From Dehalococcoidia bacterium (GTDB lineage Bacteria > Chloroflexota > Dehalococcoidia > Lucifugimonadales > UBA3495), in NCBI GenBank assembly GCA_963422765.1, contig OY730490.1, forward strand, positions 2,453,211-2,517,210: DNA of 64,000 nt, written 5' to 3'. This document shows positions 6,409-19,589 of the stretch, one piece after another. Position 1 is the stretch's first letter. The number at the start of each line of letters is the position of its first letter. A program made the translations under genes and the position numbers. Under the pieces are notes generated by a model. It was not told where the DNA came from. It searched no databases and was given only the letters and a program-made list of their open reading frames with translations.

Positions 6409-7635
6409 ATGCCCTCCCCTTTCGATGTGGAAAAAGTTCGGGCCGACTTTCCCGTGCTGCATCAGCTGGTCAACGGCAAGCCGCTGGTCTACCTGGACAA
6501 CGGCGCAACGTCGCAGAAGCCGCAGGCCGTGATTGACGAACTGGTGCGCTACTACACTACCGAGAACGCCAACGTGCATCGCGGCGTCCACACCCTGAGC
6601 CAGCGGGCCACCGATGATTACGAAGGCGCGCGAACCAAGCTGCGCGGCCTGCTCAACGCCGCCGATGACCACGAAATCATCTACACCCGCGGCACCACCG
6701 AGGGCATCAACCTGGTGGCTCAGTCCTACGGGCGGCAGAACATCGGCCCCGGCGACGAAATCATCGTCTCCAATATGGAGCATCACTCCAACATCGTCCC
6801 CTGGCAAATGCTCTGCGAGGAAAAAGGCGCCGTGCTGCGGGTGATTCCTATTGACGACACCGGCGAACTGCTGATGGACGAATACGAGCGTATGCTGTCG
6901 CCCCGCGCCAAGCTGGTGTCCATCACCCACGTGTCCAACGCCCTAGGCACCATCCTGCCCGTGGAGCAGATTATAGAGATGGCCCACGCCCAGGGAGCGC
7001 CAGTGTTGCTGGACGGCGCCCAGGCCGTGCCTCACCTGCCGGTGGACGTGCGCAAGCTGGATTGCGACTTCTACGTTTTCTCCGGCCACAAGCTCTTCGG
7101 CCCCACGGGAACCGGCGTCCTCTACGGCAAGGCCGAACTGCTGGAAGCCATGCCGCCCGTCTACGGCGGGGGTGAGATGATCAAGTCGGTGACCTTCGAG
7201 AAGACCATCTATAACGACCTGCCCTACAAGTTCGAGGCCGGCACCCCCAACATCGCCGGAGCCATCGGCCTGGGCGCGGCGGTGGACTACGTGCAGTCGG
7301 TGGGCTACGAGGCTTTTGCCGCCCACGAGGATGAATTGCTGGAGTACGGAACCAGGGCGCTGGAATCCATCGGCGGCCTGCGCATCATCGGCGCCTCGCC
7401 CCGGAAGGCCGGCATACTGTCCTTCGTCATAGACAACATTCACCCTCACGACATCGGCACCATCCTAGACGCCGAGGGCGTTGCCGTCCGCACCGGCCAC
7501 CACTGCGCCCAACCCGTGATGCAGCGATTCCAGATTCCCGCCACGGCCCGCGCTTCCCTCGCCATGTACAATACTAAAGAAGACATAGACGCCCTGGCGC
7601 GCGGAATAGACCGGGCCATAGAGGTATTCAGCTAA
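6409..7635 (+). CDS. sufS: Cysteine desulfurase SufS (class II aminotransferase V)
   Basis: [17 protein letters not shown], the PLP-lysine context [16 protein letters not shown], and the active-site loop RTGHHCAQP. Confidence 0.93.
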
Positions 7636-8084
7636 TGCCGGGACTCAGCGACCTGTACCAGGAAATACTGCTGGAGCATAACAGCAAGCCGCGCAACTTC
7701 CGCAAGGTGGAAGACGCCAGCCGCACCGCCGAGGGTTACAACCCCCTGTGCGGCGACCAGATTACCCTCTACCTGAAGCTGGTGGACGGCGTGGTGGAGG
7801 ATGTCGGGTTTCAGGGGGTCGGCTGCGCCATATCCCGCGCTTCAGCCTCCATGATGACCCAAAGCATCAAGGGCAAGAGTCTTGATGAAGCCAACGTAAT
7901 CTTCGGCGCTTTCCACGATATGATTACCCGCCCCGATGCCGAACCCGACTATGAAATCTTGGGCGACCTCGAGACCCTGGCCGGCATCAACGAGTATCCC
8001 ACCCGCATCAAGTGCGCTATCATCCCCTGGCACACCATGCGCTCCGCCCTGAGCGGCGAAGGGGAAAAGGTGACCACGGAGTAG
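7635..8084 (+). CDS. sufU: SufU/IscU-like sulfur-transfer scaffold
   Basis: LYQEILLEHNSKPRN, NPLCGD, GCAISRASASMMT and RIKCAIIPW give the three conserved Cys ligands. The start overlaps the sufS stop by 1 nt. Confidence 0.9.
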   Translation: MPGLSDLYQEILLEHNSKPRNFRKVEDASRTAEGYNPLCGDQITLYLKLVDGVVEDVGFQGVGCAISRASASMMTQSIKGKSLDEANVIFGAFHDMITRPDAEPDYEILGDLETLAGINEYPTRIKCAIIPWHTMRSALSGEGEKVTTE

Positions 8085-8092
8085 CAGGAGTT

Positions 8093-8587
8093 ATGACCCA
8101 GCTAAACGGCCCCGTATTTGATGGGCTGTACGGCGACCTCATAATGGAGCATTATCGCAGCCCGCGGAACCGCGACCCGCTGGCGGACGCCACCTTTGCC
8201 GCCTATGAGCTGAACCCCTTTTGCGGCGACCTCATTGACCTGCAACTGCGGCTGGACGGCGCCGGAGCGGTGGACCGCGTGTTTGCCAACAGCGAAGGCT
8301 GCTCCATAATCCAGGCCTCCGCCTCCATGATGTCAGATGTGGTGAAAGGCAAGACGGTAGAGGAAATTGGGGGCCTGTCCCGCCGCTTCCGCTCTTTTCT
8401 TCGCTCTCAGCCCAAAGATGACGCGCGCTCCCAGCCCGGCCCTCGCTCCCAGCCCGAAGATGACGGGCAGTCCCTTTCGGCTCTGGGCGATCTGCGCGCG
8501 TTGGGGGTGGTGCGGCGGTATCCTGTCCGCATCAAGTGCGCCCTGCTTCCCTGGACGGCGCTGGAAGAAGCCATCCGGCAGCGTTAA
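8093..8587 (+). CDS. Second SufU-like paralog with a repeat-containing insertion
   Basis: LYGDLIMEHYRSPRN, NPFCGD, GCSIIQASASMM and RIKCALLPW. It carries an extra RSQPKDDA-RSQPGP-RSQPEDDG segment. ATG at 8093 follows GCAGGAG. Confidence 0.8.
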   Translation: MTQLNGPVFDGLYGDLIMEHYRSPRNRDPLADATFAAYELNPFCGDLIDLQLRLDGAGAVDRVFANSEGCSIIQASASMMSDVVKGKTVEEIGGLSRRFRSFLRSQPKDDARSQPGPRSQPEDDGQSLSALGDLRALGVVRRYPVRIKCALLPWTALEEAIRQR

Positions 8588-8664
8588 CCACCAAAGTGAG
8601 ACGCTAAGCGGACACAAACAACGAGAGACGCCAAGCAAATCCAAAATTTGCGTAAACGCGACGA

Positions 8665-8693
8665 TTGACACCCGTGTAGGGAATAAATATAAT
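8665..8693 (+). promoter_or_regulatory. Consensus sigma-70-type promoter upstream of pyrG
   Basis: TTGACA (8665-8670), a 17-nt spacer, then TATAAT (8688-8693), leaving a leader of about 115 nt. Confidence 0.6.
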
Positions 8694-8812
8694 CACCGTG
8701 GCGTCAATGTTTCCCCCTTCCCCCTCGCGCTGCCTCTATAATTTCCTTTCATCTAGTCGGCAGTGGCGGTGTTTGTTTAACAGCACTTCCCTATCTGTCA
8801 CTGTGCGGGTAT

Positions 8813-10483
8813 ATGCCTACAAAGTTCATCTTCGTCACGGGCGGCGTCGTTAGCTCGCTGGGCAAGGGCATTTGCGTCGCATCCATCGGCCGCATCCTGA
8901 AAAGCCGTGGCCTCAACGTTTCAGTGCTAAAGCTCGACCCCTACCTGAACGTTGACCCCGGCACTATGTCACCCTATCAGCACGGCGAGGTCTTCGTAAC
9001 CCAGGACGGCGGCGAGACCGACCTTGATCTGGGCCACTACGAACGCTTTATAGACCTTGAACTCACCCGCAGCTCCAACCTCACCGCCGGAGACATCTAC
9101 CTCAACCTCATCGCCAAGGAGCGCCGGGGCGACTTCCTCGGCGGGACGATCCAGTCTGTGCCTCACGTAACCAACGACATAAAGGAACGTATCCTCCGAC
9201 TGGCCGGCGAGTCCGGCGCGGAGGTGATTGTGGTCGAGGTGGGCGGCACCGTGGGCGACATCGAGGGCCTCCCCTTTCTGGAGGCCATCCGGCAGATGCG
9301 CAATCAGGTAGGCCGCGACAACGTATTCTATATCCACCTAACGCTGCTGCCCTACCTCTCCGCCGCCCAAGAACTAAAAACCAAGCCGACCCAGCACAGC
9401 GTTAAGGAACTGCGGGCCATCGGCATCCAGCCCGACGCCATCATCTGCCGCAGCGATCATCCCGTTCCGCAGCACATCTGCGAGAAGATTTCCTCCTTCT
9501 GCGACGTTTCCAGCAACGCCGTCATCCCCCTGGAGACGGTGCAGAACGTGTACAGCGTGCCGCTGGTGCTGGAGGAGGCCGGGCTGGGCGACATCATCCT
9601 TGACTCCCTGGCCCTGCCCAGCTATGCCCCCGGCCTGCCATTCTCCGCAGGACTGCCAGTTTCCGCAGGACTAGATGAGTGGCGGGCTATGGTGGAGATG
9701 ATGGACCGCCCCAAGGAACCGCTGCCCATCGCCCTCGTTGGCAAGTACGTGGAATACCCCGACTCCTATCTATCGGTGCGCGAAGCCTTGCGCCACGCCG
9801 GACTGACGCACACCCGCGACGTGGAGTTGCAGTGGGTACACTCCGAGGACATCGAGCGCTACGGCCCCGACGACCTGCTGCGCAGCGTCAGCGGCATAGT
9901 GGTCCCCGGCGGCTTCGGCACCCGCGGCGTCGAGGGCATGGTGGATACCGTGCGCTACGCCCGCGAGCAGAAGGTGCCGTATCTCGGCCTCTGTCTGGGC
10001 TTGCAGGTGATGGTCATTGACTGGGCCCGCAACATCCTGGGGCTGGAGGGCGCCAACTCCGAGGAGCTGGAGCCGGAGACCAGCCATCCCGTGGTGCATA
10101 TAATGCCGGAGCAGGAGGGCGTCACCGTCAAGGGCGGCACTATGCGCCTCGGCGGCTACCCCTGCCGGCCCCAGGCGCGCACCATGACCCGCGACGCCTA
10201 TGGCGGCGCGGAAGTTATGGAGCGCCACCGCCACCGCTTCGAGCTGAACAACGCCTACCGCGAGGCCCTGGAGCAGTCCGGCCTCATCGCCTCCGGTCTC
10301 TCCCCAGACGGCAAGCTGGTGGAAGCCGGGGAGGCGCGCGGCCACCCCTTTATGGTAGGGGTGCAGTATCACCCCGAATTCAAGTCGCGCCCCAACCGCC
10401 CTCATCCCCTCTTCGTCCGGTTCCTCGCCGAAGCCGTCAAGACCATCCGCGAAGGCAGTCAGCCGCCGCTTCCGCTGGAATAG
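8813..10483 (+). CDS. pyrG: CTP synthase
   Basis: MPTKFIFVTGGVVSSLGKG at the N-terminus and a GATase domain with LGLCLGLQ and HRHRFE. Confidence 0.95.
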   Translation: MPTKFIFVTGGVVSSLGKGICVASIGRILKSRGLNVSVLKLDPYLNVDPGTMSPYQHGEVFVTQDGGETDLDLGHYERFIDLELTRSSNLTAGDIYLNLIAKERRGDFLGGTIQSVPHVTNDIKERILRLAGESGAEVIVVEVGGTVGDIEGLPFLEAIRQMRNQVGRDNVFYIHLTLLPYLSAAQELKTKPTQHSVKELRAIGIQPDAIICRSDHPVPQHICEKISSFCDVSSNAVIPLETVQNVYSVPLVLEEAGLGDIILDSLALPSYAPGLPFSAGLPVSAGLDEWRAMVEMMDRPKEPLPIALVGKYVEYPDSYLSVREALRHAGLTHTRDVELQWVHSEDIERYGPDDLLRSVSGIVVPGGFGTRGVEGMVDTVRYAREQKVPYLGLCLGLQVMVIDWARNILGLEGANSEELEPETSHPVVHIMPEQEGVTVKGGTMRLGGYPCRPQARTMTRDAYGGAEVMERHRHRFELNNAYREALEQSGLIASGLSPDGKLVEAGEARGHPFMVGVQYHPEFKSRPNRPHPLFVRFLAEAVKTIREGSQPPLPLE

Positions 10484-10520
10484 ACTATACGCAGACTCCG
10501 CTCGGCCGCAGAGACACAAC

Positions 10521-10655
10521 TATCAAACGCGCCCTCTCCCTAACGGAAGGCGGTGAGAGTGAGCGTGGAGATTATCAAATGCGCCCTTTCCTTAATGGTT
10601 GGGGGCAGCAGACTATCAGAAATTCCCTCTCCCGGTGAGAGAGGGTTAGGGGGGG
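10521..10655. repeat. Three tandem degenerate REP-like elements
   Basis: Each unit begins TATCA(A/G)A and contains CCCT(C/T)TCC..loop..G-rich arm. The last is CCCTCTCCCGGTGAGAGAGGGTTAGGGGGGG, ending 2 nt before the tal ATG. Confidence 0.6.
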
Positions 10656-10657
10656 TA

Positions 10658-11317
10658 ATGAAGCTCTTTCTCGACACGGCCAACCTCGACGAAATCCGCG
10701 ACGGCGCCCGTCTCGGCGTGGTCAGCGGCGTCACCACCAACCCCTCCCTGGCCGCTTCCGCCGGCATCGGCGACCGCGAAGCCTACCGTTCCGCCGTCGC
10801 CGAAATCGCCGCGCTCATCCGCGGCCCCATCTCCGTCGAGGTGGTCTCCACCGACGCCCAGGGCATGGTGGAAGAGGGACGCGACATCGCCAACTGGATT
10901 CCCGACCCGTGGGTCAAAATTCCCAGCACCATCGAAGGCATCGAAGCCATCGCCGCCCTGGCGTCCGAGGGCATCCGCGTCAACCAGACGCTCTGCTTCT
11001 CCGTCAACCAGGCCCTGCTCGGCGCTCAGGCCGGCGCCACCGTTGTCAGCCCTTTCATCGGCCGGCTCGACGACATCGGCCACGACGGCATCGCCCTCAT
11101 CCGCGACATCGCCGGCCTCTTCCGCGAGGCCGCCGTGGATACCCAGGTAATGGCCGCCAGCGTCCGCCACCCCCTGCACTGCATCAAGGCAGCCCAGGCC
11201 GGCGCGCACATCGCCACCGTGCCCTACAAGACACTGCTCCAGATGGCCCAGCACCCCCTGACCGACGCCGGCCTAGCCCGCTTCATCGCCGACTGGCGAA
11301 AGGCGAGCCAAGAGTAG
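10658..11317 (+). CDS. tal: Transaldolase / fructose-6-phosphate aldolase family (short type)
   Basis: MKLFLDTANLDEIR, GVTTNPSL and KIPST are typical of the family. The ATG at 10658 avoids translating the REP elements. Confidence 0.88.
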   Translation: MKLFLDTANLDEIRDGARLGVVSGVTTNPSLAASAGIGDREAYRSAVAEIAALIRGPISVEVVSTDAQGMVEEGRDIANWIPDPWVKIPSTIEGIEAIAALASEGIRVNQTLCFSVNQALLGAQAGATVVSPFIGRLDDIGHDGIALIRDIAGLFREAAVDTQVMAASVRHPLHCIKAAQAGAHIATVPYKTLLQMAQHPLTDAGLARFIADWRKASQE

Positions 11318-11454: not shown

Positions 11455-12768
11455 ATGACGGCAACCCGCAAGACTTTGGACGTAGTGGAGTTGGGCGGCA
11501 AGTCCAAGGAAGAACTGTTGAGCCTGGCCCCCGCCGTCGGTCTCGGCGACGCCGCGGCCCTGGACAAGATGCACCGCGAGGACATCCTCGGCCGTCTGTT
11601 CCAAGCCGCTTCCGCCAGCCAGTCCCTCGTCTCCACCGGCATCCTCGAGATAATGGACGAAGGCTATGGCTTCCTCCGCCAGTTTGCCTCCTACCGGCAC
11701 TCCGGCGACGTCTACATCTCCCAGTCCCAAATCCGGCGCTTCGGCCTGCGCACCGGCGACACCGTCACCGGCCAGGTGCGCCCGCCCAAAGAAGGCGAGC
11801 GCTACTTCGGACTGGTCCGCGTCGAGAAAATCAATAACTTCGACGCCAGTGACCCCTCCAGCAGGATTCACGGCCGCAGCCGCCCCGTTTTCGAGCACCT
11901 GACCCCGGTCTTCCCCGAACAGCAGGTGGTTCTCGAAACCTCGTCCAGCGAGCTCTCCACCCGCATGGTAGACCTCTTCGCCCCCATCGGCCTCGGACAG
12001 CGCGGCCTCATCGTCTCCCCACCCAAGGCCGGCAAGACCACTATGTTAAAGCAGATTGCCCACGGAGTCGTCACCAACTGCCCCGAGGCCCTCCTGATGG
12101 TCGCCCTCATCGGCGAGCGCCCCGAGGAAGTAACCGATATGCGCCGCTCCGTAGACGGCGACGTCTTTGCCTCCACCTTCGACGAATCGGTGGAAGAGCA
12201 ATGCCGCGTGGCCGAACTCTGCCTCGACCGCGCCAAGCGCCTCGTCGAGCTGGGCAAGGACGTCGTCATCCTGCTCGACAGTATCACCAGGCTCACCCGC
12301 GCCTACAACTTGGCCGTGCCCACCAGCGGGCGCACCCTCTCCGGCGGCATTGACCCCCTGGCCCTCTATCCCCCCAAGAAGTTCTTCGGCGCCGCCCGCA
12401 ACATCGAAGAGGGCGGCTCCCTCACCATCATCGCCACCTGCCTGGTCGACACCGGCTCCCGTATGGACGAGGTCATCTACGAGGAGTTCAAGGGCACCGG
12501 CAATATGGAGCTTCACCTAGACCGCAAGCTGGCCGAGCGCCGCTACTTCCCAGCCATAGACATCGTGCGCTCCGGCACCCGCCGAGAAGAACTCCTCTAC
12601 TCCCCAGAAGCCCACAAGCAAGTCGTCCTGCTCCGGCGTATGATCGGTATGCTCTCCAACAACGGCGACGGCGCCAGCGCCACCGAGCGCGTTCTGGAGC
12701 GCCTCTCCAAGACCCCCACCAACCACGAATTTCTGCGCACTCTCTCCGCCGCCGCCAGCCCCGCCTAG
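11455..12768 (+). CDS. rho: Transcription termination factor Rho
   Basis: [14 protein letters not shown], Walker [18 protein letters not shown] and [12 protein letters not shown] at 11455 follows GAGGTGA. The tracked 10909 start overlaps tal. Confidence 0.93.
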
Positions 12769-12860
12769 CCCATACCCATAACACGCCCAGACATCCAGGC
12801 CGACAGCCGCCCGCCTAAGTAACAAATCAAAAATAACAAATCAAACCTGAGGGAATCACA

Positions 12861-13196
12861 ATGGAAGAACGCATAGACCGGCTGGAAAACCTTATGGCGG
12901 CGTCAGTTCAGTTGTCCGAAATTATGCTCCGAAATCAGGATCAAATGCGTCGGAACTATCGCCACCTCCAAGAGAACAACCGGCGCAACGAAGAGAACAA
13001 CCGGCGCAACGAAGAGAACAACCGGCGCAACGAAGAGAACAACCGGCGCAACGAAGAGAACTGGCAACGCATCGAGGAAAACAACCGGCTCATGGAAGAG
13101 AGCCAAGAGGAAATCAGATACCTCTTGCAGCGGCTAACCCAGGCGGTGGCCGTAATGCAGGCGGAAATCGTGCGCATTGACGAAACCCACGCTTAG
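12861..13196 (+). CDS. Coiled-coil microprotein, cassette 1 (111 aa, the divergent member)
   Basis: MEERIDRLENL..., four NRRNEEN heptads, and the shared C-module EESQEEIRYLLQRLTQAVAVMQAEIVRIDETHA. RBS GAGGGA. Confidence 0.7.
   Translation: MEERIDRLENLMAASVQLSEIMLRNQDQMRRNYRHLQENNRRNEENNRRNEENNRRNEENNRRNEENWQRIEENNRLMEESQEEIRYLLQRLTQAVAVMQAEIVRIDETHA
12978..13061 (+). repeat. Four perfect 21-nt tandem repeats inside cassette 1
   Basis: AACCGGCGCAACGAAGAGAAC x4 with no mismatch, encoding (NRRNEEN)4. Confidence 0.95.
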
Positions 13197-13277
13197 CGAA
13201 AATCTCACCCAGACCATCAAGGCCAGCCTGCCGAACCATTCTCGCTCAGGAGCGGAATCGAACCGGGAGAAATCAAA

Positions 13278-13529
13278 ATGGAAGAACGCATAGACCGCTT
13301 GGAAAGCCTGCTTGAAGCGTCAGTCCTGCTGGCCGAAACTATGCAACGGAATCATGACCGTATGCGTGAGAACCAGCGGCGCAACGAAGAGAACTGGCAA
13401 CGCATCGAGGAAAACAACCGGCTCATGGAAGAGAGCCAAGAGGAAATCAGAGACCTCTTGCAACGGCTGACCCAGGCGGTGGCCGTAATGCAGGCGGAAA
13501 TCGTGCGCATTGACGAAACCCACGCCTAG
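13278..13529 (+). CDS. Coiled-coil microprotein, cassette 2 (83 aa, minimal form)
   Basis: Same N- and C-modules with the shortest central segment. RBS GGGAGA. Confidence 0.7.
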   Translation: MEERIDRLESLLEASVLLAETMQRNHDRMRENQRRNEENWQRIEENNRLMEESQEEIRDLLQRLTQAVAVMQAEIVRIDETHA

Positions 13530-13608
13530 CCAATCTCACCCAGACCATCAAGGCCAGCCTGCCGAACCATACTCGCTCAGGAGCGGAATCGAACCGGGGG
13601 AAATCACG

Positions 13609-13980
13609 ATGGAAGAACGCATAGACCGCTTGGAAAGCCTGCTTGAAGCGTCAGTCCTGCTGGCTGAAACTATGCAACGGAATCATGACCGTATGCGTGA
13701 GAACCACCGGCGCAACGAAGAGAACTGGCAAGATTATCAGCGGCGCAACGAAGAGAGGTGGCAGGATTACCAGCGGCGCAACGAAGAGAACAACCGGCTC
13801 AACGAAGAGAGGTGGCAGGATTACCAACAACGCAACGAAGAGAACAACCGGCTCAACGAGGAAAACAACCGGCTCATCGAAGAGAGCCAAGAGGAAATCA
13901 GAGACCTCCTGCAACGGCTAACCCAAGCGGTGGCCGTAATGCAGGCGGAAATCGTGCGCATTGACGAAACCCACGCCTAG
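13609..13980 (+). CDS. Coiled-coil microprotein, cassette 3 (123 aa)
   Basis: Starts at MEERIDRLESLL. The central part holds three WQDYQ(R/Q)RNEE(N/R) 11-mers plus NRLNEE(N/R) 7-mers. The tracked TTG start at 13510 lies inside cassette 2. Confidence 0.7.
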   Translation: MEERIDRLESLLEASVLLAETMQRNHDRMRENHRRNEENWQDYQRRNEERWQDYQRRNEENNRLNEERWQDYQQRNEENNRLNEENNRLIEESQEEIRDLLQRLTQAVAVMQAEIVRIDETHA

Positions 13981-14062
13981 CGAAAATCTCACCCAGACCA
14001 TCAAGGCCAGCCTGGCCGAACCATACTCGCTCAGGAACGGAATCGAACCGGGAGAAATCAAA

Positions 14063-14368
14063 ATGGAAGAACGCATAGACCGCTTGGAAAGCCTGCTTGA
14101 AGCGTCAGTCCTGCTGGCTGAAACTATGCAACGGAATCATGACCGTATGCGTGAGAACCACCGGCGCAACGAAGAAAACTGGCGGCTCATGGAAGAGAGA
14201 TGGCAGGATTATCAGCGGCGCAACGAAGAAAACAACCGGCGCAACGAAGAAAACTGGCGGCTCATGGAAGAGAGCCAAGACGAAATCAGAGACCTCTTGC
14301 AACGGCTAACCCAGGCGGTGGCCGTAATGCAGGCGGAAATCGTGCGCATTGACGAAACCCACGCCTAG
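14063..14368 (+). CDS. Coiled-coil microprotein, cassette 4 (101 aa)
   Basis: Starts at MEERIDRLESLL. Relative to cassette 2 the central part gains one 11-mer and one 7-mer. The tracked TTG start at 13961 lies inside cassette 3. Confidence 0.7.
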   Translation: MEERIDRLESLLEASVLLAETMQRNHDRMRENHRRNEENWRLMEERWQDYQRRNEENNRRNEENWRLMEESQDEIRDLLQRLTQAVAVMQAEIVRIDETHA

Positions 14369-14449
14369 CGAAAATCTCACCCAGACCATCAAGGCCAGCC
14401 CGCCGAACCATACTCGCTCAGGAACGGAATCGAACCGGGAGAAATCACG

Positions 14450-14734
14450 ATGGAAGAACGCATAGACCGCTTGGAAAGCCTGCTTGAAGCGTCAGTCCTG
14501 CTGGCCGAAACTATGCAACGGAATCATGACCGTATGCGTGAGAACCACCGGCGCAACGAAGAAAACTGGCAGGATTATCAGCGGCGCAACGAAGAGAACA
14601 ACCGGCGCAACGAAGAAAACTGGCGGCTCATCGAAGAGAGTCAAGAGGAAATCAGAGACCTCTTGCAACGGCTGACCCAGGCGGTGGCCGTAATGCAGGC
14701 GGAAATCGTGCGCATTGACGAAATCCACGCCTGA
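14450..14734 (+). CDS. Coiled-coil microprotein, cassette 5 (94 aa)
   Basis: Same N- and C-modules, one extra 11-mer relative to cassette 2. It is the only cassette ending in TGA rather than TAG. Confidence 0.7.
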   Translation: MEERIDRLESLLEASVLLAETMQRNHDRMRENHRRNEENWQDYQRRNEENNRRNEENWRLIEESQEEIRDLLQRLTQAVAVMQAEIVRIDEIHA

Positions 14735-14812
14735 CGCCGCTTTCTCCTGAGCCTGTCGAGGCGCCCTGCCTCCAGAAATCCGCCGCACCCCCACAGCAGC
14801 GATAGCCGGGCG

Positions 14813-15196
14813 TCAGCCTGCGATTTGCCCAGCTACCAGCGTGGCGATTACCGCCGTCCCCACCCCAATCATCACGTAGAACAGCTTGTCTATCCGCCCG
14901 ATCATACTATCAACGCGGACCTCCAGGCGGTCAATGCGGTCGTTGATCTCCTTGTTATCCTCGGCGTTTTGCCGGGCCAGTTCCGTGATGCGCTGATTGG
15001 TCTCCCGGTTGGTCTCCCGTATGACCTCCATCAGCAGATTGACGTTTTCCGCAATCCGCTGATTCGTGTCGTCTATCCGCCGGTTGTAGGCCGCCATCTC
15101 CGCCGCGGCCCGCTCGTTGCTCGCCTTTATCTCCACTTCCAGCCGGATTAGCCGCTCCACTATGGGGTCCTGCTGGCCCCCGCCGCCGTTAACCAT
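14813..15196 (-). CDS. Tail-anchored coiled-coil protein (XhlA-like architecture)
   Basis: 127 aa with a charged helical N-terminal part (IVERLIRLE, NDRIDRLEVRVDSMIGRIDKL) and a C-terminal hydrophobic helix FYVMIGVGTAVIATLVAGQIAG. It shares the IDRLE motif with the array. Confidence 0.65.
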   Translation of the reverse strand: MVNGGGGQQDPIVERLIRLEVEIKASNERAAAEMAAYNRRIDDTNQRIAENVNLLMEVIRETNRETNQRITELARQNAEDNKEINDRIDRLEVRVDSMIGRIDKLFYVMIGVGTAVIATLVAGQIAG

Positions 15197-15375
15197 CGCT
15201 TGCGCTCCTTTCCGGTTCTGCTCCTCCAGTATAACAGCATACCCGCCAGCGCCTCCGCTTCCAGCCGGATTAGCCGCTCCACTATGTCTCTGTCCCCCGG
15301 CTGCGCCCCGTTTCCTGTGGTCATCGTCCTATTCCCCCGTCCGAACTGTGCGTCCCCGGCCATATCGCCAGCCAT
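15160..15375 (-). other. Partial upstream duplicate of the 5' end of the 14813..15196 gene
   Basis: A 29-nt exact direct repeat (15136-15164 and 15258-15286) encodes IVERLIRLE. The upstream ORF then loses similarity and overlaps the real start. Confidence 0.35.
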
Positions 15376-15434
15376 ATCACCGGCCCCATTTTATTGAAAA
15401 ATCTCAAAAAACAGCCAAAACTGCCCCTCAATCC

Positions 15435-15463
15435 TTGACGCCCCCGTAATCCGTGCGTAATAC
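15435..15463 (+). promoter_or_regulatory. Putative promoter of the large surface-protein gene
   Basis: TTGACG (15435-15440), a 17-nt spacer, then TAATAC (15458-15463). This implies a leader of about 390 nt. Confidence 0.4.
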
Positions 15464-15649
15464 TTGTACCGCTATCATTGCTGTCACTGAGCAACCCTGC
15501 CGGGGACAGCTCCGCCGGTTCACGCCGGACATCTTTCATTCAGGAGGAGGACGCCGCCCATGCAGGCATAAGGCTCCCGCCAGGAGCGGGCCCGCCAGAA
15601 CCCAGGCAACCCTGAAGAGACCAGGCAGAACCGAAAGAAGCCAGCCCCG

Positions 15650-15825
15650 CGGTGCAGCGGGCTCGAGTGGCCCCGATTCCGCGACGGACTGGCAGCCAAC
15701 TAAAGGCAAACCGGCCCATCCGGTGCAGCGGGCTTGAGTGGCCCCGATTCCGGACCCGGCCCCACAACCGGCCGAAAGGCAAACCAGGCTCAACGGAGCA
15801 GCGGGCTCAAGCGGCCCCGATTTCC
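15650..15825 (+). repeat. Three tandem copies of a ~72-nt repeat in the leader
   Basis: The core CGG(T/A)GCAGCGGGCT(C/T)(G/A)AG(T/C)GGCCCCGATT(T)CCG occurs at 15650, 15721 and 15793. Each copy is followed by (G)AAAGGCAAACC-like sequence, and the last runs into the RBS. Confidence 0.85.
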
Positions 15826-15857
15826 GGACGAGTCTGCCGAAAGGAGATTTCCCAAAA

Positions 15858-18725
15858 ATGAATACACAAGTTGGCAAATCCGCAGGAATCGTCCTGCTTC
15901 TGGCGGCGGGCATCTTGGCCGCCCTTTTCACCATGGGCGTCTTTTCCTCGCCCACCAACGTTTTCGCACAGGGTGGCGAAATTGATTTCGACCACCACAT
16001 TCTCAGTAGCGAAAGCTCTACAACCCCTACTGACATTGTGCTCTCTGTACAGGTCAAATCTGCGGAGATCAGGGAGGCTGGAGATGATGTCGTAATCACT
16101 CCTCAGCTTAAAGACTCAAATGGCGAAGCAATCGACATCAAGGATCTGCCCGAAGACAGCGTAAAAGTAGAATTGGACGGAGGTAAACTCGCATCTACGT
16201 CTGATGCCAAAGGCGTCGTCACTATTAAGGCGGACGCGTTCGTTGGGAGTTCCATGCTCGTGGTCACTTGGCCTAATGTGCAGCGAGTAGAGGGTGCGGC
16301 TCCCGTCAACGATGTCTCCATCGGCGAAGCAAATGAATTGTTCCCAGAAGTCTCCTCTTCTGTGGGAGATCTTACCGTCGATCTCTCCTCTAAGGAGCCC
16401 GGGAAAGTAACGCAGATTGAGATCACCGGGGAAGCTGCTACGGCAATCCAACCTAACGAGGATATCGCTGTCGGACTGGTGGGCTTCGGTGTGCCCGACA
16501 GCATCAAGGACTCGGATATCAACATTGCTAGTGGTAGTTTCAAGGGTTCCCCGGAGAACGTGCTGGTGAACGGCAGCGAGATAACCATGACCGTTCCAAG
16601 CACCATGGCTAGCGGAGCCGAACAAATTAAGGCAGTCTCTGACAAGTACACCATCAGGATAAAGCAGTCGGCGAGAATCACCAATCCTGCCTCCGCCGGG
16701 GACAAGACCATTTCGATCCAAGAGAATGCCCCTGGCGCAAAGAAGAGTGGAACTGCCACCATCGATCGGATAATCGAGCTGAAGCCGTCTTCAGGCGCCC
16801 GCGGCACCGAGACCACGGCCACCCTCAAGGGTTTCGCCAACGGCACGGCCGCGGTCAGTGTGCGGGGCTCAAAAATCGGCGAGGCTGATATTGATAAAAA
16901 TATCGGCACGCTGGTTATAGACACCGATTCGGATGATTTCATTACCGGCAAAAACGAAATCACAGCGGTGGACGGTAGCGGCAACTCCCAGGACGTAAGC
17001 GCCACGTTCACCATCAATCCCAAGGTTACTGCCGATCCCGCAAAGACGGCGCTCTCCAAGACGGTAACTCTCAAGCTGATCGACTGGCCTACGTCAAACA
17101 AGATTACCGAGGTCAAAATCGGTGCTGAGACAGTGACTCCTCCTACTGACGGTTGGCCAAGCACTGGCCGCACAGACGGTAAAGCAGAGTTCAAGGTTAC
17201 AGTGCCAGCCAAGGTGAATCGCGGGGACCAGACCCTGAAGGTGACCGGCACGGGGGCTAAAGATAGCACCCCGTCGGCCACAGTCAAGCTGGAAATTGGG
17301 GTGCAGTCTCTGGAACTGATGCCCGCCAAAGCGGTGATGGGCCAAAAGATCACCATCAAGGGCAGCGGTTTCCCTGCTGGCGACGATGATGAAGATGGCA
17401 ACAAGCTAACTATCGCCGGCGTGCCTGTAGATACAGCTGACGGATTCTCGATTACCAGCGGCGGCGACATCAATCTCACCGTCACGGTTCCCACCGACAA
17501 AGCCATAAAGACGGGCAAGAAAAACGAGGTCGAAGTCACGACCGCAAGCAATTCCATTGGCATCGCTGAGCTGGAGATAATCAAGCCCAGCATCAGCTTC
17601 GAAGCTGATGAAGGTCATCTTAAAGACCATGTTATGGTGACCGGAGAAGGTTTCATTGCCAATGAGTTCGTCACCTTGCTATACAATGACAAACGCGTTG
17701 AAAGCGAGGTTGCGGATGACGAAGGCAAGTTTACTACCGAATTCAAATTGCCTGACAGCGCGAAACCGGGCGATAAGGAGAAGGTAGAAGCGAAAGCTAC
17801 TGTCGGCGCCGTCGAAGTCACGGCAAGCAAAGACTATTCCATTTACAAGGCGAAGATGACGCTGGGGCAGGAAGAGATCAATGCCGGAAGCAACCTGGCT
17901 ATCAAGGTGGAAAACCTGAAAGCCTTCGTGTCAGTGTCTCTGGTCGAAATCGGCACCACGGATGTTATTCCCTCCCCTAAGCCTCAATCCGACGCAGACG
18001 GCATAGCCGAGTTCAGCGTTCTCGTGCCAGGCGGGAGCATGGGCAACCGCAGGGTGCACGTCGAAGTCGACGGACTAAAGCTGACCGAAACCGTCAAGGT
18101 TGTGGCAGAGCCGATTGCGACACCGACGCCTGAGCCGACTCCGACCGCGACGCCCGAGCCGACGCCCGAGCCGACGCCCGAGCCGACGCCGGAGCCGACG
18201 CCGATGCCCGAACCGACGATATCGGTGGCGCCGGAAGAAGTTAACCCCGGAGACGAACTGACTGTCACGCTGGAGAACCTGACTGCGGCGAAGAACGTCG
18301 TAGTAGCAGCGGTTACCATCGGCGAAATGGTCGCTACCACAAATCCTGCTACGATCCAAATCAGCGAAGACGGCACAGCCGCTTTCAGCCTTATGGTTCC
18401 TGACGGGCTCAGGGGTCACAATGAAGTGAAGGTCACAATCTCTGGAACAGCCCCTCTGAGCGCAAAAGTCAATGTGGTGGCAATCGCCACGGCAGACGTG
18501 TTCAAGCCCCTCATCGATAACGATAACCTGACGTCGGTCTGGCACTTCAGCAACGCCGACCAGACTTGGACCTCCTACTCCCCGACCGTTCCGGCTGAGC
18601 TGAACGACCTGACAATGGTCCCCAGCGGGCAAATCGTCTGGGTAAAGGTTGTAGAGGAACAGGAATTCGATGGCGCTGCCCCTTCCACTCTCTACCCTGG
18701 CTGGAACAACGTATCCATAAAATAG
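15858..18725 (+). CDS. Large secreted cell-surface protein with multiple Ig-like (IPT/big-type) domains and a PT/PE-rich linker
   Basis: ATG at 15858 follows AAGGAG. The signal peptide is MNTQVGKSAGIVLLLAAGILAALFTMGVFSSPTNVFAQG. It has recurring beta-rich ~90-aa modules (ITIKGSGFPAG, VMVTGEGFIANE) and the linker PIATPTPEPTPTATPEPTPEPTPEPTPEPTPMPEPT. Confidence 0.75.
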   Translation: MNTQVGKSAGIVLLLAAGILAALFTMGVFSSPTNVFAQGGEIDFDHHILSSESSTTPTDIVLSVQVKSAEIREAGDDVVITPQLKDSNGEAIDIKDLPEDSVKVELDGGKLASTSDAKGVVTIKADAFVGSSMLVVTWPNVQRVEGAAPVNDVSIGEANELFPEVSSSVGDLTVDLSSKEPGKVTQIEITGEAATAIQPNEDIAVGLVGFGVPDSIKDSDINIASGSFKGSPENVLVNGSEITMTVPSTMASGAEQIKAVSDKYTIRIKQSARITNPASAGDKTISIQENAPGAKKSGTATIDRIIELKPSSGARGTETTATLKGFANGTAAVSVRGSKIGEADIDKNIGTLVIDTDSDDFITGKNEITAVDGSGNSQDVSATFTINPKVTADPAKTALSKTVTLKLIDWPTSNKITEVKIGAETVTPPTDGWPSTGRTDGKAEFKVTVPAKVNRGDQTLKVTGTGAKDSTPSATVKLEIGVQSLELMPAKAVMGQKITIKGSGFPAGDDDEDGNKLTIAGVPVDTADGFSITSGGDINLTVTVPTDKAIKTGKKNEVEVTTASNSIGIAELEIIKPSISFEADEGHLKDHVMVTGEGFIANEFVTLLYNDKRVESEVADDEGKFTTEFKLPDSAKPGDKEKVEAKATVGAVEVTASKDYSIYKAKMTLGQEEINAGSNLAIKVENLKAFVSVSLVEIGTTDVIPSPKPQSDADGIAEFSVLVPGGSMGNRRVHVEVDGLKLTETVKVVAEPIATPTPEPTPTATPEPTPEPTPEPTPEPTPMPEPTISVAPEEVNPGDELTVTLENLTAAKNVVVAAVTIGEMVATTNPATIQISEDGTAAFSLMVPDGLRGHNEVKVTISGTAPLSAKVNVVAIATADVFKPLIDNDNLTSVWHFSNADQTWTSYSPTVPAELNDLTMVPSGQIVWVKVVEEQEFDGAAPSTLYPGWNNVSIK

Positions 18726-18851: not shown

Positions 18852-19589
18852 ATGACCAAAACCAGATTCTTGACGCTGTTGGGCCTGTTGGCCTTGCTGG
18901 CGGCGGTGCCTATGGCCTCGGCGCTGGCCCAACAGCAGATACCTCAGAAATTTTATGGCGCGGTAACAATGCAGGCAGACGGGTCAACCCCCGCTGAAGG
19001 CACAGCCGTAACGGCAATGATAAACGGCGAGCAAGTCGGCAGCGGCATGGTCGACCCCAACGGTATGTACCTGGTCCTGGTTGAAGGCGACTATGCAGAC
19101 CAGGAAGTGACGTTCATGATCGGCGATGAGGACGCCAACGAGTCGGCGACGTTTGTGAACGGCGACATTACCCCGTTGCACCTTTCGGTCGGCCAGGCTC
19201 CTGCGCCAAAGCCGACCCTGAATATAGCGCAACTGCTCGGACCGAAGGGAGACAAGGGCGATAAGGGAGACCCTGGCGAACCCGGGCCGGCCGGCGAGCA
19301 AGGCCCGCCGGGAGAACAAGGACCGGCAGGCACTGACGGCAACGACGGCGCAGCAGGCCCGGCAGGACCGGCAGGCGCTGACGGCAACGACGGCTCCGAT
19401 GGGGCCCGAGGGGCTAGCGGAACTAACGGCGAGGCAGGCCCGGCAGGCCCGGCAGGCGCCGCAGGCCCGGCAGGCCCGGCAGGCGCTGACGGCGGCGGTG
19501 GCGGACTCGCCATCGTGGCGCTGATAATCGCCATCGTCGGCGTGGTCGCCGCAGGCGGAGCGTTCATCGCCGGACGCAACAGCTCCTAG
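18852..19589 (+). CDS. Collagen-like triple-helix repeat protein with a signal peptide and a C-terminal membrane anchor
   Basis: Signal peptide [26 protein letters not shown], a globular head of about 95 aa, then about 28 uninterrupted G-X-Y triplets ([21 protein letters not shown]...). The C-terminus is the helix [27 protein letters not shown]. Confidence 0.8.

Follow-up and report, generated by a model that had tools for sequence, protein, structure and literature searches.

Directly downstream of the gene for the transcription termination factor Rho, an uncultured Dehalococcoidia bacterium carries five same-strand genes whose products have N- and C-terminal modules in common and differ in their middles. 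The question that this locus raises is whether such genes are real and, if so, what proteins of one build and several lengths might do for a cell. In the window analysed here (the whole stretch of 64,000 nucleotides), the five cassettes prove to be genuine paralogues; the family to which they belong, here called family A, is undescribed, consists of small acidic proteins and is restricted to the Dehalococcoidia. The original prediction had described five head-to-tail genes after rho for proteins of 83, 94, 101, 111 and 123 aa, with 19, 30, 37, 47 and 59 residues between MREN/MRRN and ESQ(E/D)E; the list of open reading frames (ORFs) and the protein alignment agree exactly on the genes, and the residue counts come out as claimed. 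The order of lengths along the DNA is non-monotonic (Table 1). Taking the 83 aa protein as the base, cassettes 1 to 5 add 4 × 7, 0, 7 + 3 × 11, 7 + 11 and 11 residues, the heptads and hendecads of the middles having been parsed manually from the protein alignment.

Table 1. Features of the array and its surroundings (positions in the window).
Feature	Position	Strand	Remarks
rho (transcription termination factor)	11455..12768	+	Pfam Rho_RNA_bind 4.8e-30, ATP-synt_ab 8.3e-26; directly upstream of the array
Cassette 1, family A protein, 111 aa	12861..13196	+	7 heptads in the middle; divergent N-module; family HMM E=1.9e-37
Spacer 1, 81 nt	13197..13277	+	Shine-Dalgarno GGGAG; first of four near-identical spacers
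Cassette 2, family A protein, 83 aa	13278..13529	+	3 heptads in the middle
Cassette 3, family A protein, 123 aa	13609..13980	+	4 heptads + 3 hendecads in the middle
Cassette 4, family A protein, 101 aa	14063..14368	+	4 heptads + 1 hendecad; missing from L051
Cassette 5, family A protein, 94 aa	14450..14734	+	3 heptads + 1 hendecad; final gene of the array
Further near-identical spacers	13530-13608, 13981-14062, 14369-14449		
Family B protein, 127 aa, C-terminal transmembrane anchor	14813..15196	-	N-motif IVERLIRLE; heptads TNQRI(D/E)x; convergent with the array
71-aa ORF	15160..15375	-	repeats the family B N-terminus (DIVERLIRLE), without repeats or anchor
Conserved leader of the large surface-protein gene	15435..15857	+	promoter-like TTGACG-18-AATACT; three hairpin-motif copies
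Hairpin-motif copies in the leader	15656-15674, 15727-15745, 15800-15818		
Putative cell-surface protein, about 955 aa from ATG 15858	15858..18725	+	N-terminal hydrophobic segment, Pro/Thr/Glu linker
Collagen-repeat protein	18852..19589	+	signal-peptide-like N-terminus; Pfam Collagen 9.6e-14

The ATG starts with which the cassettes begin in Table 1 come from the ORF list together with the protein alignment. For cassettes 3 and 4 the mechanical list gives longer ORFs started by TTG (13510 and 13961); the ATG starts are favoured by the family-wide N-terminus MEER/MEDR, by the Shine-Dalgarno sequences and by the gene calls in the orthologous locus. Every cassette has a Shine-Dalgarno sequence of its own (GGGAG/GAGGGA), 8–13 nt 5' of the ATG. 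Tandem Repeats Finder reports a 331-bp period with 95% identity and a score of 1294, far above chance, besides internal repeats of 21, 33 and 54 bp; in cassette 1 the 21-bp repeat covers 12970-13101 (6.3 copies), and in cassette 3 the 33- and 54-bp repeats lie at 13703-13859. Cassettes 4 and 5 can be read through in frame, but as a pseudo-dimer model the read-through protein is of no use, since its linker of 27 residues would impose an antiparallel orientation.

Rho and the array are probably co-transcribed, judging from the sequence. The gap between them has no promoter-like or plus-strand terminator-like site, no plus-strand promoter or terminator was found inside the array, and the order rho–family A is kept, with a gap of 66–113 nt, in the loci L001, L003, L004, L051 and L060. 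Apparent minus-strand terminators in the array were rejected, being repeated ...GGCTCATGGAAGAGAGCCAA... coding sequence in a number that equals the shuffled expectation. The spacers show no excess of folding over shuffled sequence (z +0.4 to +1.5), and Rfam gave no match at E<=1 over 12000-16000. In the spacers, GGAATCGAACC resembles the T-loop of a minus-strand tRNA; this candidate was discarded, ARAGORN finding no tRNA there.

Near-identical tandem units of about 0.37–0.45 kb are prone to short-read mis-assembly, and the ORF list also contains minus-strand ORFs across the repeats, so the array could be thought an assembly artefact, or a non-coding repeat with spurious ORFs. We consider this hardly credible. 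Among 60 distinct homologous C-module sequences, the codon entropy is 1.47 bits at position 3 versus 0.58 and 0.32 bits at positions 1 and 2, which means conservation at the protein level with free third positions. Moreover, an independent assembly of a close relative from another sample (L051) has the same architecture at the same locus, with four cassettes. It is on these observations, and on the Shine-Dalgarno sequence of each cassette, that we take the genes to be real. Whether cassettes or genomes are compared, every indel keeps the reading frame and has a length that is a multiple of 21 or 33 nt. The contigs are of megabase size, and the names of other records are in a style that suggests a long-read assembler.

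The family A proteins start with a conserved amphipathic N-module, M-E-[DE]-R-[IV]-x-x-L-E..., and finish with a C-module, ..LLQQLLQAVAVMQA[DE]IVRIDETH[SA], likewise amphipathic and conserved, which is always the end of the protein; the last ~25 residues are almost invariant up to the C-terminus. The heptads between the modules have the family consensus [N/S/R]-Q-R-[R/Q]-[M/A/I]-E-E, which in the window reads N-N-R-R-N-E-E. Membership was defined by M-E-[DE]-R-x-x-x-L-E, by ..QA[DE]IVRIDETH[SA]-stop and by a distance between these anchors in the class 5 mod 7 (each stutter shifting it by +4). All five cassettes belong to the family so defined, with distances of 103, 75, 115, 93 and 86 for cassettes 1 to 5 and HMM E values of 1e-32 to 1e-37.

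A profile search over 1.84 billion representatives places family A in 72 clusters at 50% identity, and its homologues (228 matches) are all small, unnamed and free of Pfam domains. The confident matches (E<=1e-6) all have 41–159 aa and never occur fused with other domains, so this exhaustive search gave no fusion hinting at function; the weak ones (E>=5.7e-6) include a few longer generic coiled-coil proteins. The 50 genome loci with family A are all (50/50) from Dehalococcoidia/Chloroflexi MAGs. It had been remarked that no described family with this organisation was known, and this remark withstood the searches, which returned sub-threshold generic coiled-coil noise. For the five proteins and their neighbour, the best scores were 9–17 bits against cut-offs of 21–35 in Pfam, and 8–19 bits against cut-offs of 104–2400 in NCBIfam. 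The best E for any family A protein in PHROGs was 0.028, and the profile search of the PDB gave only generic coiled-coil matches, the best (E=3.6e-4) to a designed protein. As for an origin from mobile elements, tblastn against phage and plasmid collections gave no match, and a full-text search of the literature found nothing on such proteins in Dehalococcoidia.

The differences in length follow a simple rule. Of 154 sequences, 136 have a distance from the N- to the C-anchor of 5 mod 7, and 15 others have one of 2 mod 7, which corresponds to one stutter; among the 26 representatives at 50% identity, 22 belong to the class 5 mod 7 (binomial P=2e-15). The proposal that all differences decompose into heptads and hendecads is correct for the window and the orthologous locus, where the lengths keep to 7- and 11-residue steps, but not family-wide: pure heptad steps are the rule, hendecads being a minority with one in 15/154 sequences. 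Compared cassette by cassette, the proteins have 111, 83, 123, 101 and 94 aa in the window versus 97, 76, 123, none and 94 aa in L051, with flanks that are 96–98% identical. The repeat numbers differ by exact heptads, and two of the four shared cassettes have changed at a flank divergence of 2–4%. Cassette 5 is orthologous to the fourth cassette of L051 (9141-9425 there), with an AGT codon and a TGA stop in both, and the window's own 94-aa protein is not on record in other assemblies.

The comparison among the cassettes themselves gives mosaic mismatch matrices. Near-identity of cassettes 2–5 in constant parts and spacers had been noticed beforehand, and it is borne out by 0–2 mismatches per 111 nt in the N-module and 5–7 per 81 nt in the upstream spacers (the 25–29 mismatches counted for the cassette 4 spacer are an artefact of one extra G that shifts the ungapped comparison). 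The greater divergence ascribed to cassette 1 is true of its 5' half, with 29–30 mismatches per 111 nt in the N-module and an unrelated upstream region, but not of its C-module, which has only 4–8 mismatches per 96 nt against the others. Thus, the C-module of cassette 1 has been homogenised with the rest and its N-module has not; in L051, cassettes 1 and 2 have private substitutions in common. Both observations, like the exact-heptad differences between such similar loci, fit the suggested concerted evolution with expansion and contraction of repeats. Length changes by in-frame gain or loss of 21-bp units and, occasionally, by heptad pairs that lose three residues to become hendecads; whole cassettes of roughly 0.37–0.45 kb are duplicated or lost, and gene conversion keeps the constant parts alike. 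Streptococcal M proteins, antigens on which immune selection acts, are large, secreted and anchored in the wall. The likeness to them lies in the in-frame DNA repeats encoding heptad helices, which slip and recombine with rapid turnover between close strains, whereas family A is small, acidic and without export signal. Taken jointly, the reality of the genes, their architecture and this mechanism are in our opinion very probable.

Other genomes have arrays as well, with 2–4 copies of family A. In each of six independent arrays the paralogues have array-specific end-modules and differ in repeat number, all lengths within an array being distinct. Downstream of rho, the copy number is one in L001, L004 and L060, two in L003, four in L051 and five in the window. 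Distinct lengths do not require selection, since the repeat number mutates so fast.

What do these proteins look like? Rods had been foreseen, and AlphaFold2 agrees in predicting single uninterrupted helices for cassette 2 (residues 2-82, pLDDT 94.8) and cassette 3 (residues 2-122, pLDDT 94.3, straight through the hendecads), in monomer models that always draw an isolated amphipathic sequence as helical and in which a single helix and a coiled-coil strand are therefore indistinguishable. The WXG100 proteins of type VII secretion, about 100 aa long, fold as a helix-turn-helix hairpin that has W-x-G at its centre. Membership in this group was rejected, the predicted helix having no turn and the sequences neither a WxG motif nor a Pfam match.

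The whole protein could be a canonical homo-oligomeric coiled coil of 7- and 11-residue periodicities, with the five genes as graded molecular rulers. The heptad phase is continuous from N- to C-module in 88% of family members, and the terminal modules have a/d/e hydrophobic seams that satisfy the canonical coiled-coil criterion. Besides, every array has all its lengths distinct, and the weak PDB profile matches are mostly coiled coils; among them are laminin, the YbgF N-domain, GCN4-pIQI and EibD, several of which we take to be trimeric. Asn at position d is reportedly tolerated in trimeric coiled coils (Hartmann et al. 2009). The middle, nonetheless, does not behave as the classical coiled coil that had been proposed. 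Its hydrophobic residues amount to only 12–20% in the window, many heptads (NNRRNEE) have none, and four such units in a row leave a stretch of 28 residues that lacks any hydrophobic side chain. In the family-wide heptad register only one position is hydrophobic (86%), and three residues later comes N/S/R. A canonical heptad coiled coil, which has hydrophobic residues at a and d, was thus rejected for the middle. Nor is the helical register preserved in all variants, as had been supposed: a hendecad is best taken as two heptads minus three residues, a stutter, and shifts the heptad phase. The lengths are not graded in physical order, and repeat numbers vary between near-identical genomes, which argues for drift in length and against a fixed calibrated set. 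We hold the ruler interpretation to be unlikely.

A charged single alpha-helix (SAH) or a polar-core coiled coil fits the middle better. About 50% of its residues are charged and 20–31% are Asn, and opposite-charge i/i+3 and i/i+4 pairs number 11–31 versus 5–14 in shuffled sequences, an excess of about 2.0–2.4 times, or about 3–6 standard deviations. With this excess and no hydrophobic seam, the window middles have two of the features of SAHs. The middle has the appearance of a charged spacer, held by salt bridges and flanked by two amphipathic ends. SAH (ER/K) spacers occur, for example, in myosin VI/X and caldesmon; their E+K+R content is typically well above 60%, and they are helical as isolated monomers. 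Their general role is described as that of semi-rigid linkers (PMC5378345). Family A resembles them in a long predicted helix with dense Glu-Arg pairs, placed between two functional modules and evolving in length. Unlike them, it is a stand-alone protein of 69–123 aa and not a linker within a large one, its charged fraction is lower and its middle Asn- or Gln-rich, and its repeat is strictly heptadic, in phase with the amphipathic ends; we claim no sequence homology for this likeness.

A polar layer was considered too. The stalks of trimeric autotransporters are said to carry an N@d motif, [ILV]xxNTxx (Hartmann et al. 2009), and family A heptads likewise have Asn/Ser at d and one aliphatic residue at a, with the autotransporter EibD among the weak PDB matches. 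In contrast, position e is Q/N/W instead of T, and position a is often Asn in the window. The motif [ILV]-x-x-N-T-x-x was not found in register and this candidate was rejected.

Length might also have no function: the proteins could be abundant hydrophilic helices that act as filler or in stress, either in the manner of hydrophilins and LEA proteins or as a chaperone-like shield, amplified in tandem for dosage, while the number of repeats drifts neutrally through 21-bp slippage. They are extremely hydrophilic and acidic in composition, with net charges from -5 to -11, relatives have 1 to 5 copies at one site, the turnover of repeats is fast, and all members stand alone. Furthermore, family A genes occupy three conserved positions (between a glyoxalase gene and MBL/PriA, before a TPP enzyme, and after rho), and neither a partner gene nor a functional theme is common to these three ancestral neighbourhoods. 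But the near-invariant last ~25 residues and the conserved N-motif argue for specific binding surfaces, which bulk-acting hydrophilins lack, and there is no Gly-rich or LEA-type 11-mer signature and no LEA Pfam match. Functionless length is, in our view, rather improbable.

The array converges on the gene of a tail-anchored heptad protein, the first member of what we call family B. Family B lengths also step by seven (80/87/94, 97/104 and 115/122 aa), and both families have an N-motif [DE]R[IL]xRLE and heptads of the xNxRI[DE]x type. Alignment of the two N-motifs by hhalign covers 15 columns at a probability of 58%, which may partly reflect composition. In L003 the A and B heptads are near-identical (NNRRIDE versus SNRRIDE). 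Convergent A/B neighbours occur in the window, L051, L003, L060 and, as two pairs, L061; about 90% of the family A loci examined have no B nearby, their contexts being unrelated housekeeping genes, and B is found without A as well. The 71-aa ORF next to the B gene is conserved in L051 and matches the B HMM weakly (E=0.0018); by its sequence, it is probably a truncated paralogue of family B.

The pair recalls two known arrangements. SNARE-type sets consist of tail-anchored heptad proteins and soluble helical partners. Here too a tail-anchored heptad protein is encoded beside a soluble all-helical one, a likeness of architecture only: there is no sequence similarity (best such PDB match E=0.66), and we know of no internal membranes in the host of the array. 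HSBP1 (PF06825) is small, one continuous helix and a trimeric coiled coil that binds the heptad region of HSF1. Family A would be a regulator of this type if its free helix bound a heptad stalk, of B or another coiled-coil protein, and blocked or tuned its oligomerisation, different lengths fitting different targets. Both are small stand-alone heptad proteins with one predicted uninterrupted helix, for which a heptad-repeat partner is plausible; PF06825 is often among the precomputed Pfam matches on distant B relatives, and the convergent gene pairs and the matching heptads of L003 point the same way. Nevertheless, those PF06825 matches are accompanied by matches to many generic coiled-coil families and probably reflect composition, and most A genes have no B neighbour. 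Family A also differs in its variable repeat number, its tandem paralogues, its invariant C-terminal motif and its bacterial, Dehalococcoidia-restricted occurrence. Membership was rejected outright, PF06825 being absent at E<=1 for all cassettes, and regulation of the HSBP1 type seems to us distinctly improbable.

Beyond family B lies a gene for a large putative surface protein, which recurs beside family B and some family A genes. Its homologues stand next to A and/or B in L001, L003, L051, L057, L058, L059 and L060, and it has a TIG/Ig-like match of 20.7 bits, just under the Pfam cut-off of 20.9. The collagen-repeat protein travels with it (homologues in L001, L051, L052, L057 and L060).

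The explanation that we prefer is that the two end-modules of family A would serve as binding or oligomerising surfaces and the middle as a stiff spacer that gains about 1 nm with each heptad. The rods formed by the five proteins would measure about 12 to 18 nm and hold the same end-modules at different distances. Their most likely partner would be the convergently encoded family B protein: given the common N-motif and heptad type, A rods could attach to, or assemble together with, a cytoplasmic stalk that is anchored in the membrane. This function as spacer or adaptor with B is a tentative proposal, rather unlikely when taken by itself. The explanation as a whole, comprising the family A paralogues, the helix architecture, the evolution by repeats and the spacer or adaptor rods with B, appears to us evenly poised between right and wrong.

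A bolder version, which we regard as highly unlikely, can be formulated: A and B might form a length-coded, membrane-anchored helical scaffold coupled to the surface and collagen-like genes and tuned by 21-bp slippage. B stalks and A rods of discrete length would co-assemble via the N-motif and matching polar heptads, as interchangeable parts, and would set defined distances beneath the membrane of wall-less, S-layer-type cells. Such a scaffold would be the natural equivalent, in the cytoplasm, of Braun's lipoprotein (Lpp), which determines by the length of its helix how wide the periplasm is. Lpp is a secreted and lipidated protein joined to peptidoglycan via a C-terminal Lys, and its length variants were engineered. 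Both are small, nearly all-helical rods in which the number of heptads changes a physical distance, but family A has neither signal peptide nor lipobox and its length variants are natural paralogues. An Lpp-like lipoprotein ruler was itself rejected, because the sequences start with MEERIDRLE and end with ETHA, with no hydrophobic N-terminus and no Cys.

Without a function, the array is a well-documented curiosity and not a breakthrough. It does give a name to two uncharacterised families, soluble A and tail-anchored B, in the Dehalococcoidia, a large and mostly uncultured group, and it connects them, though loosely, with a conserved surface-protein locus that has an unusual repeated-hairpin leader. 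If the preferred explanation is true, the array would be a natural length series, in which the same binding modules are set 3 to 7 stiff polar helix repeats apart by variants encoded side by side that change by exact one-heptad steps between close relatives. Thus, it would offer a ready-made system for asking whether polar (Asn/Arg/Glu) heptads form a single helix or a polar-core coiled coil, in what way such helices tolerate stutters, and whether the length of a helix serves cells as a ruler.

The gene directly 5' of the array is rho (Pfam: Rho_RNA_bind 4.8e-30, ATP-synt_ab 8.3e-26), and both the ORF list and the protein alignment confirm the five tandem cassettes, c1 to c5, that the original prediction placed downstream of it. 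A mechanical ORF list gives longer, TTG-started ORFs for c3 and c4. We take the ATGs to be their real starts, because GGGAG lies 8–13 nt upstream, MEER is the family-wide N-terminus, and the gene calls agree in L051, the same locus in a close relative from another sample. The N-module and the C-module are invariant across the five proteins, while the middles, with the predicted 19, 30, 37, 47 and 59 residues, indeed parse into units of 7 and 11 residues: a heptad, N-[NQHW]-R-[RL]-x-E-E, and a hendecad, [NR]-W-Q-D-Y-Q-[RQ]-R-N-E-E. With the 83-aa protein as the baseline, the other four have 11, 7 + 11, 4 × 7 and 7 + 3 × 11 residues added. All indels among the cassettes are in frame in the DNA alignment, and Tandem Repeats Finder gives the array a 331-bp period at 95% identity with internal repeats of 21, 33 and 54 bp.

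Coordinates of the array and of the neighbouring features in the window
Feature	Position	Strand	Remarks
c1	12861-13196	+	111 aa
c2	13278-13529	+	83 aa
c3	13609-13980	+	123 aa
c4	14063-14368	+	101 aa
c5	14450-14734	+	94 aa
Family B gene	14813-15196	-	127 aa; convergent with the array
Small ORF	15160-15375	-	71 aa
Leader	15435-15857
Hairpin motif copies	15656-15674, 15727-15745, 15800-15818
Large putative surface protein	15858-18725	+	TIG match just under the Pfam threshold
Collagen-repeat protein	18852-19589	+	3' of the large surface-protein gene

The comparison with a related genome that had been suggested for the array bears it out. In L051, whose flanks are 96–98% identical to the window, four cassettes, with 97, 76, 123 and 94 aa, lie downstream of rho; the first is two heptads shorter than c1, the second one heptad shorter than c2, c3 and c5 have equal lengths in both genomes, and c4 is missing. 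Besides, among 60 distinct C-module homologues taken from other genomes the entropy is 1.47 bits at the third codon position versus 0.58 at the first and 0.32 at the second, a set in which the nine residues used to retrieve the loci are invariant by ascertainment. The same codon pattern persists in the columns adjoining those nine residues and in protein-database matches that were not so selected. The L051 locus and the free third position rule out the array as an artefact, and by this evidence the cassettes are to be regarded as translated genes under purifying selection.

The five proteins belong to a real, lineage-restricted and unnamed family of small proteins, called here family A. A profile of c1–c5 matched 228 small proteins, none of them named and none with a Pfam domain, and when HMMER was run exhaustively against 1.84 billion representatives, 72 clusters at 50% identity were obtained. 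All confident matches (E<=1e-6) have 41–159 aa and no fusion to another domain; a few weak matches are longer, generic coiled-coil proteins. In the species-level genome collection, all 50 loci come from MAGs of Dehalococcoidia or Chloroflexi, and a single genome often has two or three of them; soil, sediment and sponges are the sources of these MAGs. There was no match in the phage and plasmid collections. The earlier statement that no described family has this organisation holds, as nothing significant was found in Pfam, NCBIfam, PHROGs or the PDB. The signature of the family consists of an N-terminal M-E-[DE]-R-[IV]-x-x-L-E, heptads in variable number and, just before the stop codon, a C-terminal end that hardly varies, ..LLQQLLQAVAVMQA[DE]IVRIDETH[SA]; the invariant C-terminal peptide is ..AVAVMQAEIVRIDETHA.

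Family A has conserved ends and a polar spacer middle whose length is quantised in heptads. We measured in 154 distinct sequences how far the VRIDE motif lies from the N-motif, and the spacing is 54, 61, 68, 75, 82, 89, 96, 103 or 110 (5 mod 7) in 136 of them. Another 15 fall in the class 2 mod 7, with one extra 4-residue stutter (one hendecad), and one of the three remaining exceptions is the 123-aa protein of the window, with three hendecads. Among representatives at 50% identity, 22 of 26 are in a single mod-7 class (binomial P=2e-15). The hendecad may be viewed as a pair of heptads that has lost three residues (NWQRIEEN-QRRNEE -> NWQxx-QRRNEE), that is, as a classical stutter; its counterpart in related species is NR[VL]EIQRRNEE.

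Each family A protein is predicted to be a single helix. AlphaFold2 with family alignments gives one unbroken helix for the 83-aa protein (residues 2–82, pLDDT 94.8) and also for the 123-aa protein (residues 2–122, pLDDT 94.3), so the predicted helix runs on through the hendecads. Assuming a helix with 0.15 nm per residue, rod lengths of 12.4, 14.1, 15.1, 16.6 and 18.4 nm would be expected for the five proteins. The original prediction saw in them coiled-coil rods of graded length, with a suggested role as ruler, spacer or adaptor; in this model the coiled coil would extend over the full length. The predicted single helix and the a/d/e hydrophobic seams that register analysis finds in the N- and C-modules agree with that model, but the middle is probably not a classical coiled coil. 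Across the family its heptads have one hydrophobic position ([M/A/I], 86%) with N/S/R three residues on, and many heptads of the window read NNRRNEE, with no hydrophobic residue. The middles in the window are 12–20% hydrophobic and about 50% charged, and their opposite-charge i/i+3 and i/i+4 pairs are about 2.0–2.4 times as frequent as in shuffled versions. The middle fits a single helix held by salt bridges, or a coiled coil with a polar core, better than it fits a classical coiled coil. An HSBP1-like regulator is a further possible reading of such proteins.

The proposal of concerted evolution with repeat expansion and contraction agrees with the mosaic mismatch matrices of the cassettes and with the repeat-number differences between the window and L051. 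Thus, c1 differs from the other cassettes at 29–30 of 111 sites in the N-module and at only 4–8 of 96 in the C-module. The first two cassettes of L051 have private changes in common (ATT; ..CAC TCC TAG, giving ..THS) that are missing from their orthologues in the window, and the C-module of c2 is identical to that of the third L051 cassette. Such a mosaic is the product that would be expected from gene conversion or unequal exchange. At the orthologous site 3' of rho, one copy is found in each of L001, L004 and L060, two in L003, four in L051 and five in the window, the largest array among the loci compared. Elsewhere, two or three copies form arrays that are independent of this one, in L054, L053, L029 and L036. 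In each array the end-modules are array-specific and common to its paralogues, and the repeat number differs. Length and copy number change, then, by in-frame slippage of repeats, duplication or loss of cassettes, and gene conversion. Repeat number has changed in two of the four cassettes shared with L051, at a flank divergence of 2–4%, and therefore the distinct lengths need not be selected. This counts in favour of a rival explanation, in which hydrophilic proteins are amplified for dosage and their lengths drift neutrally.

Family A genes are found at three conserved sites with no functional theme in common: 3' of a glyoxalase-fold gene and 5' of genes for a small membrane protein, an MBL hydrolase, PriA and L19 (16 loci); 5' of a TPP enzyme gene (11 loci); and 3' of rho. 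More informative than these sites is the gene that converges on the array. It is a member of a second unnamed family, family B (members P0182–P0204), whose proteins have [IL]-[VL]-[ED]-R-L-I-R-L-E as their conserved N-motif and differ in how many T-N-[QRK]-R-I-[DE]-[DE] heptads they carry. Within sub-families, lengths change in steps of seven residues (80/87/94, 97/104 and 115/122 aa). At the C-terminus lies a transmembrane helix with basic residues on its N-terminal side; by the positive-inside rule, family B would be tail-anchored and face the cytoplasm. The heptads of both families are almost alike in L003 (NNRRIDE versus SNRRIDE), and the last family A heptad (RIDETH) is of the B type; in a profile–profile comparison the N-motifs alone align (15 columns, probability 58%). 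Convergent A/B neighbours occur in the window, L051, L003, L060 and L061, the last with two successive pairs. Family B is also present without A, and the surroundings of most A genes lack a B gene. B-like heptad proteins were found beyond Dehalococcoidia by profile search, annotated only as generic coiled coils.

Several observations accompany these families. The 71-aa ORF, which has the N-motif of the family B gene beside it (DIVERLIRLE) and neither repeats nor anchor, is kept in L051 and is probably a truncated duplicate. The pairs in L061 (6257-7656; A 84 aa/B 94 aa, then A 105 aa/B 80 aa) have no rho in their surroundings and adjoin a T6SS_Tle1-like gene. In L058, a 17.8-kb contig, a type I-E-like CRISPR-Cas set (7068-11261; Cas2, Cas1, Cas6e-like, Cas5, Cas7, Cse2) and a family B gene are about 2 kb apart, a proximity that is probably coincidental. 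Longer proteins of 321–370 aa (e.g., P0179) have (A/T)NERLD(A/D) or AENGRQI heptads before a globular C-terminal domain; one is encoded in L022 (4923-5888, +), directly 5' of a family A gene, and with them the use of this heptad may extend to a third type of protein.

Family B genes are usually divergent from a gene for a large putative surface protein, often with a collagen-repeat gene next, and homologues of both proteins are present at other loci. At the DNA level the large gene is only ~83% identical between the window and L051, against 96–98% for the surrounding genes; the protein is evolving much faster than its neighbours. Roughly 420 nt upstream of it are conserved across distant loci, begin with a promoter-like TTGACG-18-AATACT and have no Rfam match. 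Inside a 73-bp tandem repeat, this stretch carries the hairpin motif AGNGGGCYNNNRNGGCCCC three times (0.26 matches expected); in one to three copies, the motif also precedes large surface-protein genes in L001, L003, L051, L054, L057, L058 and L059. The stem is invariant among the copies, so there is no covariation by which to test it. The stretch is a candidate for an as yet undescribed leader element in mRNA.

We think that the ends of family A would serve as surfaces for binding or oligomerisation, with the middle as a stiff spacer between them, so that the paralogues would hold identical ends at different distances. Family B, a probable partner family, would be the most plausible partner of these proteins. 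As a whole, the original interpretation is supported in part. Helical heptad proteins that vary in length by repeat number are an already known kind; family A itself, its strict quantisation, the tandem sets of paralogues of different length and the pairing with a tail-anchored relative are new. These proteins are a clean natural system for coiled-coil and single-helix research.
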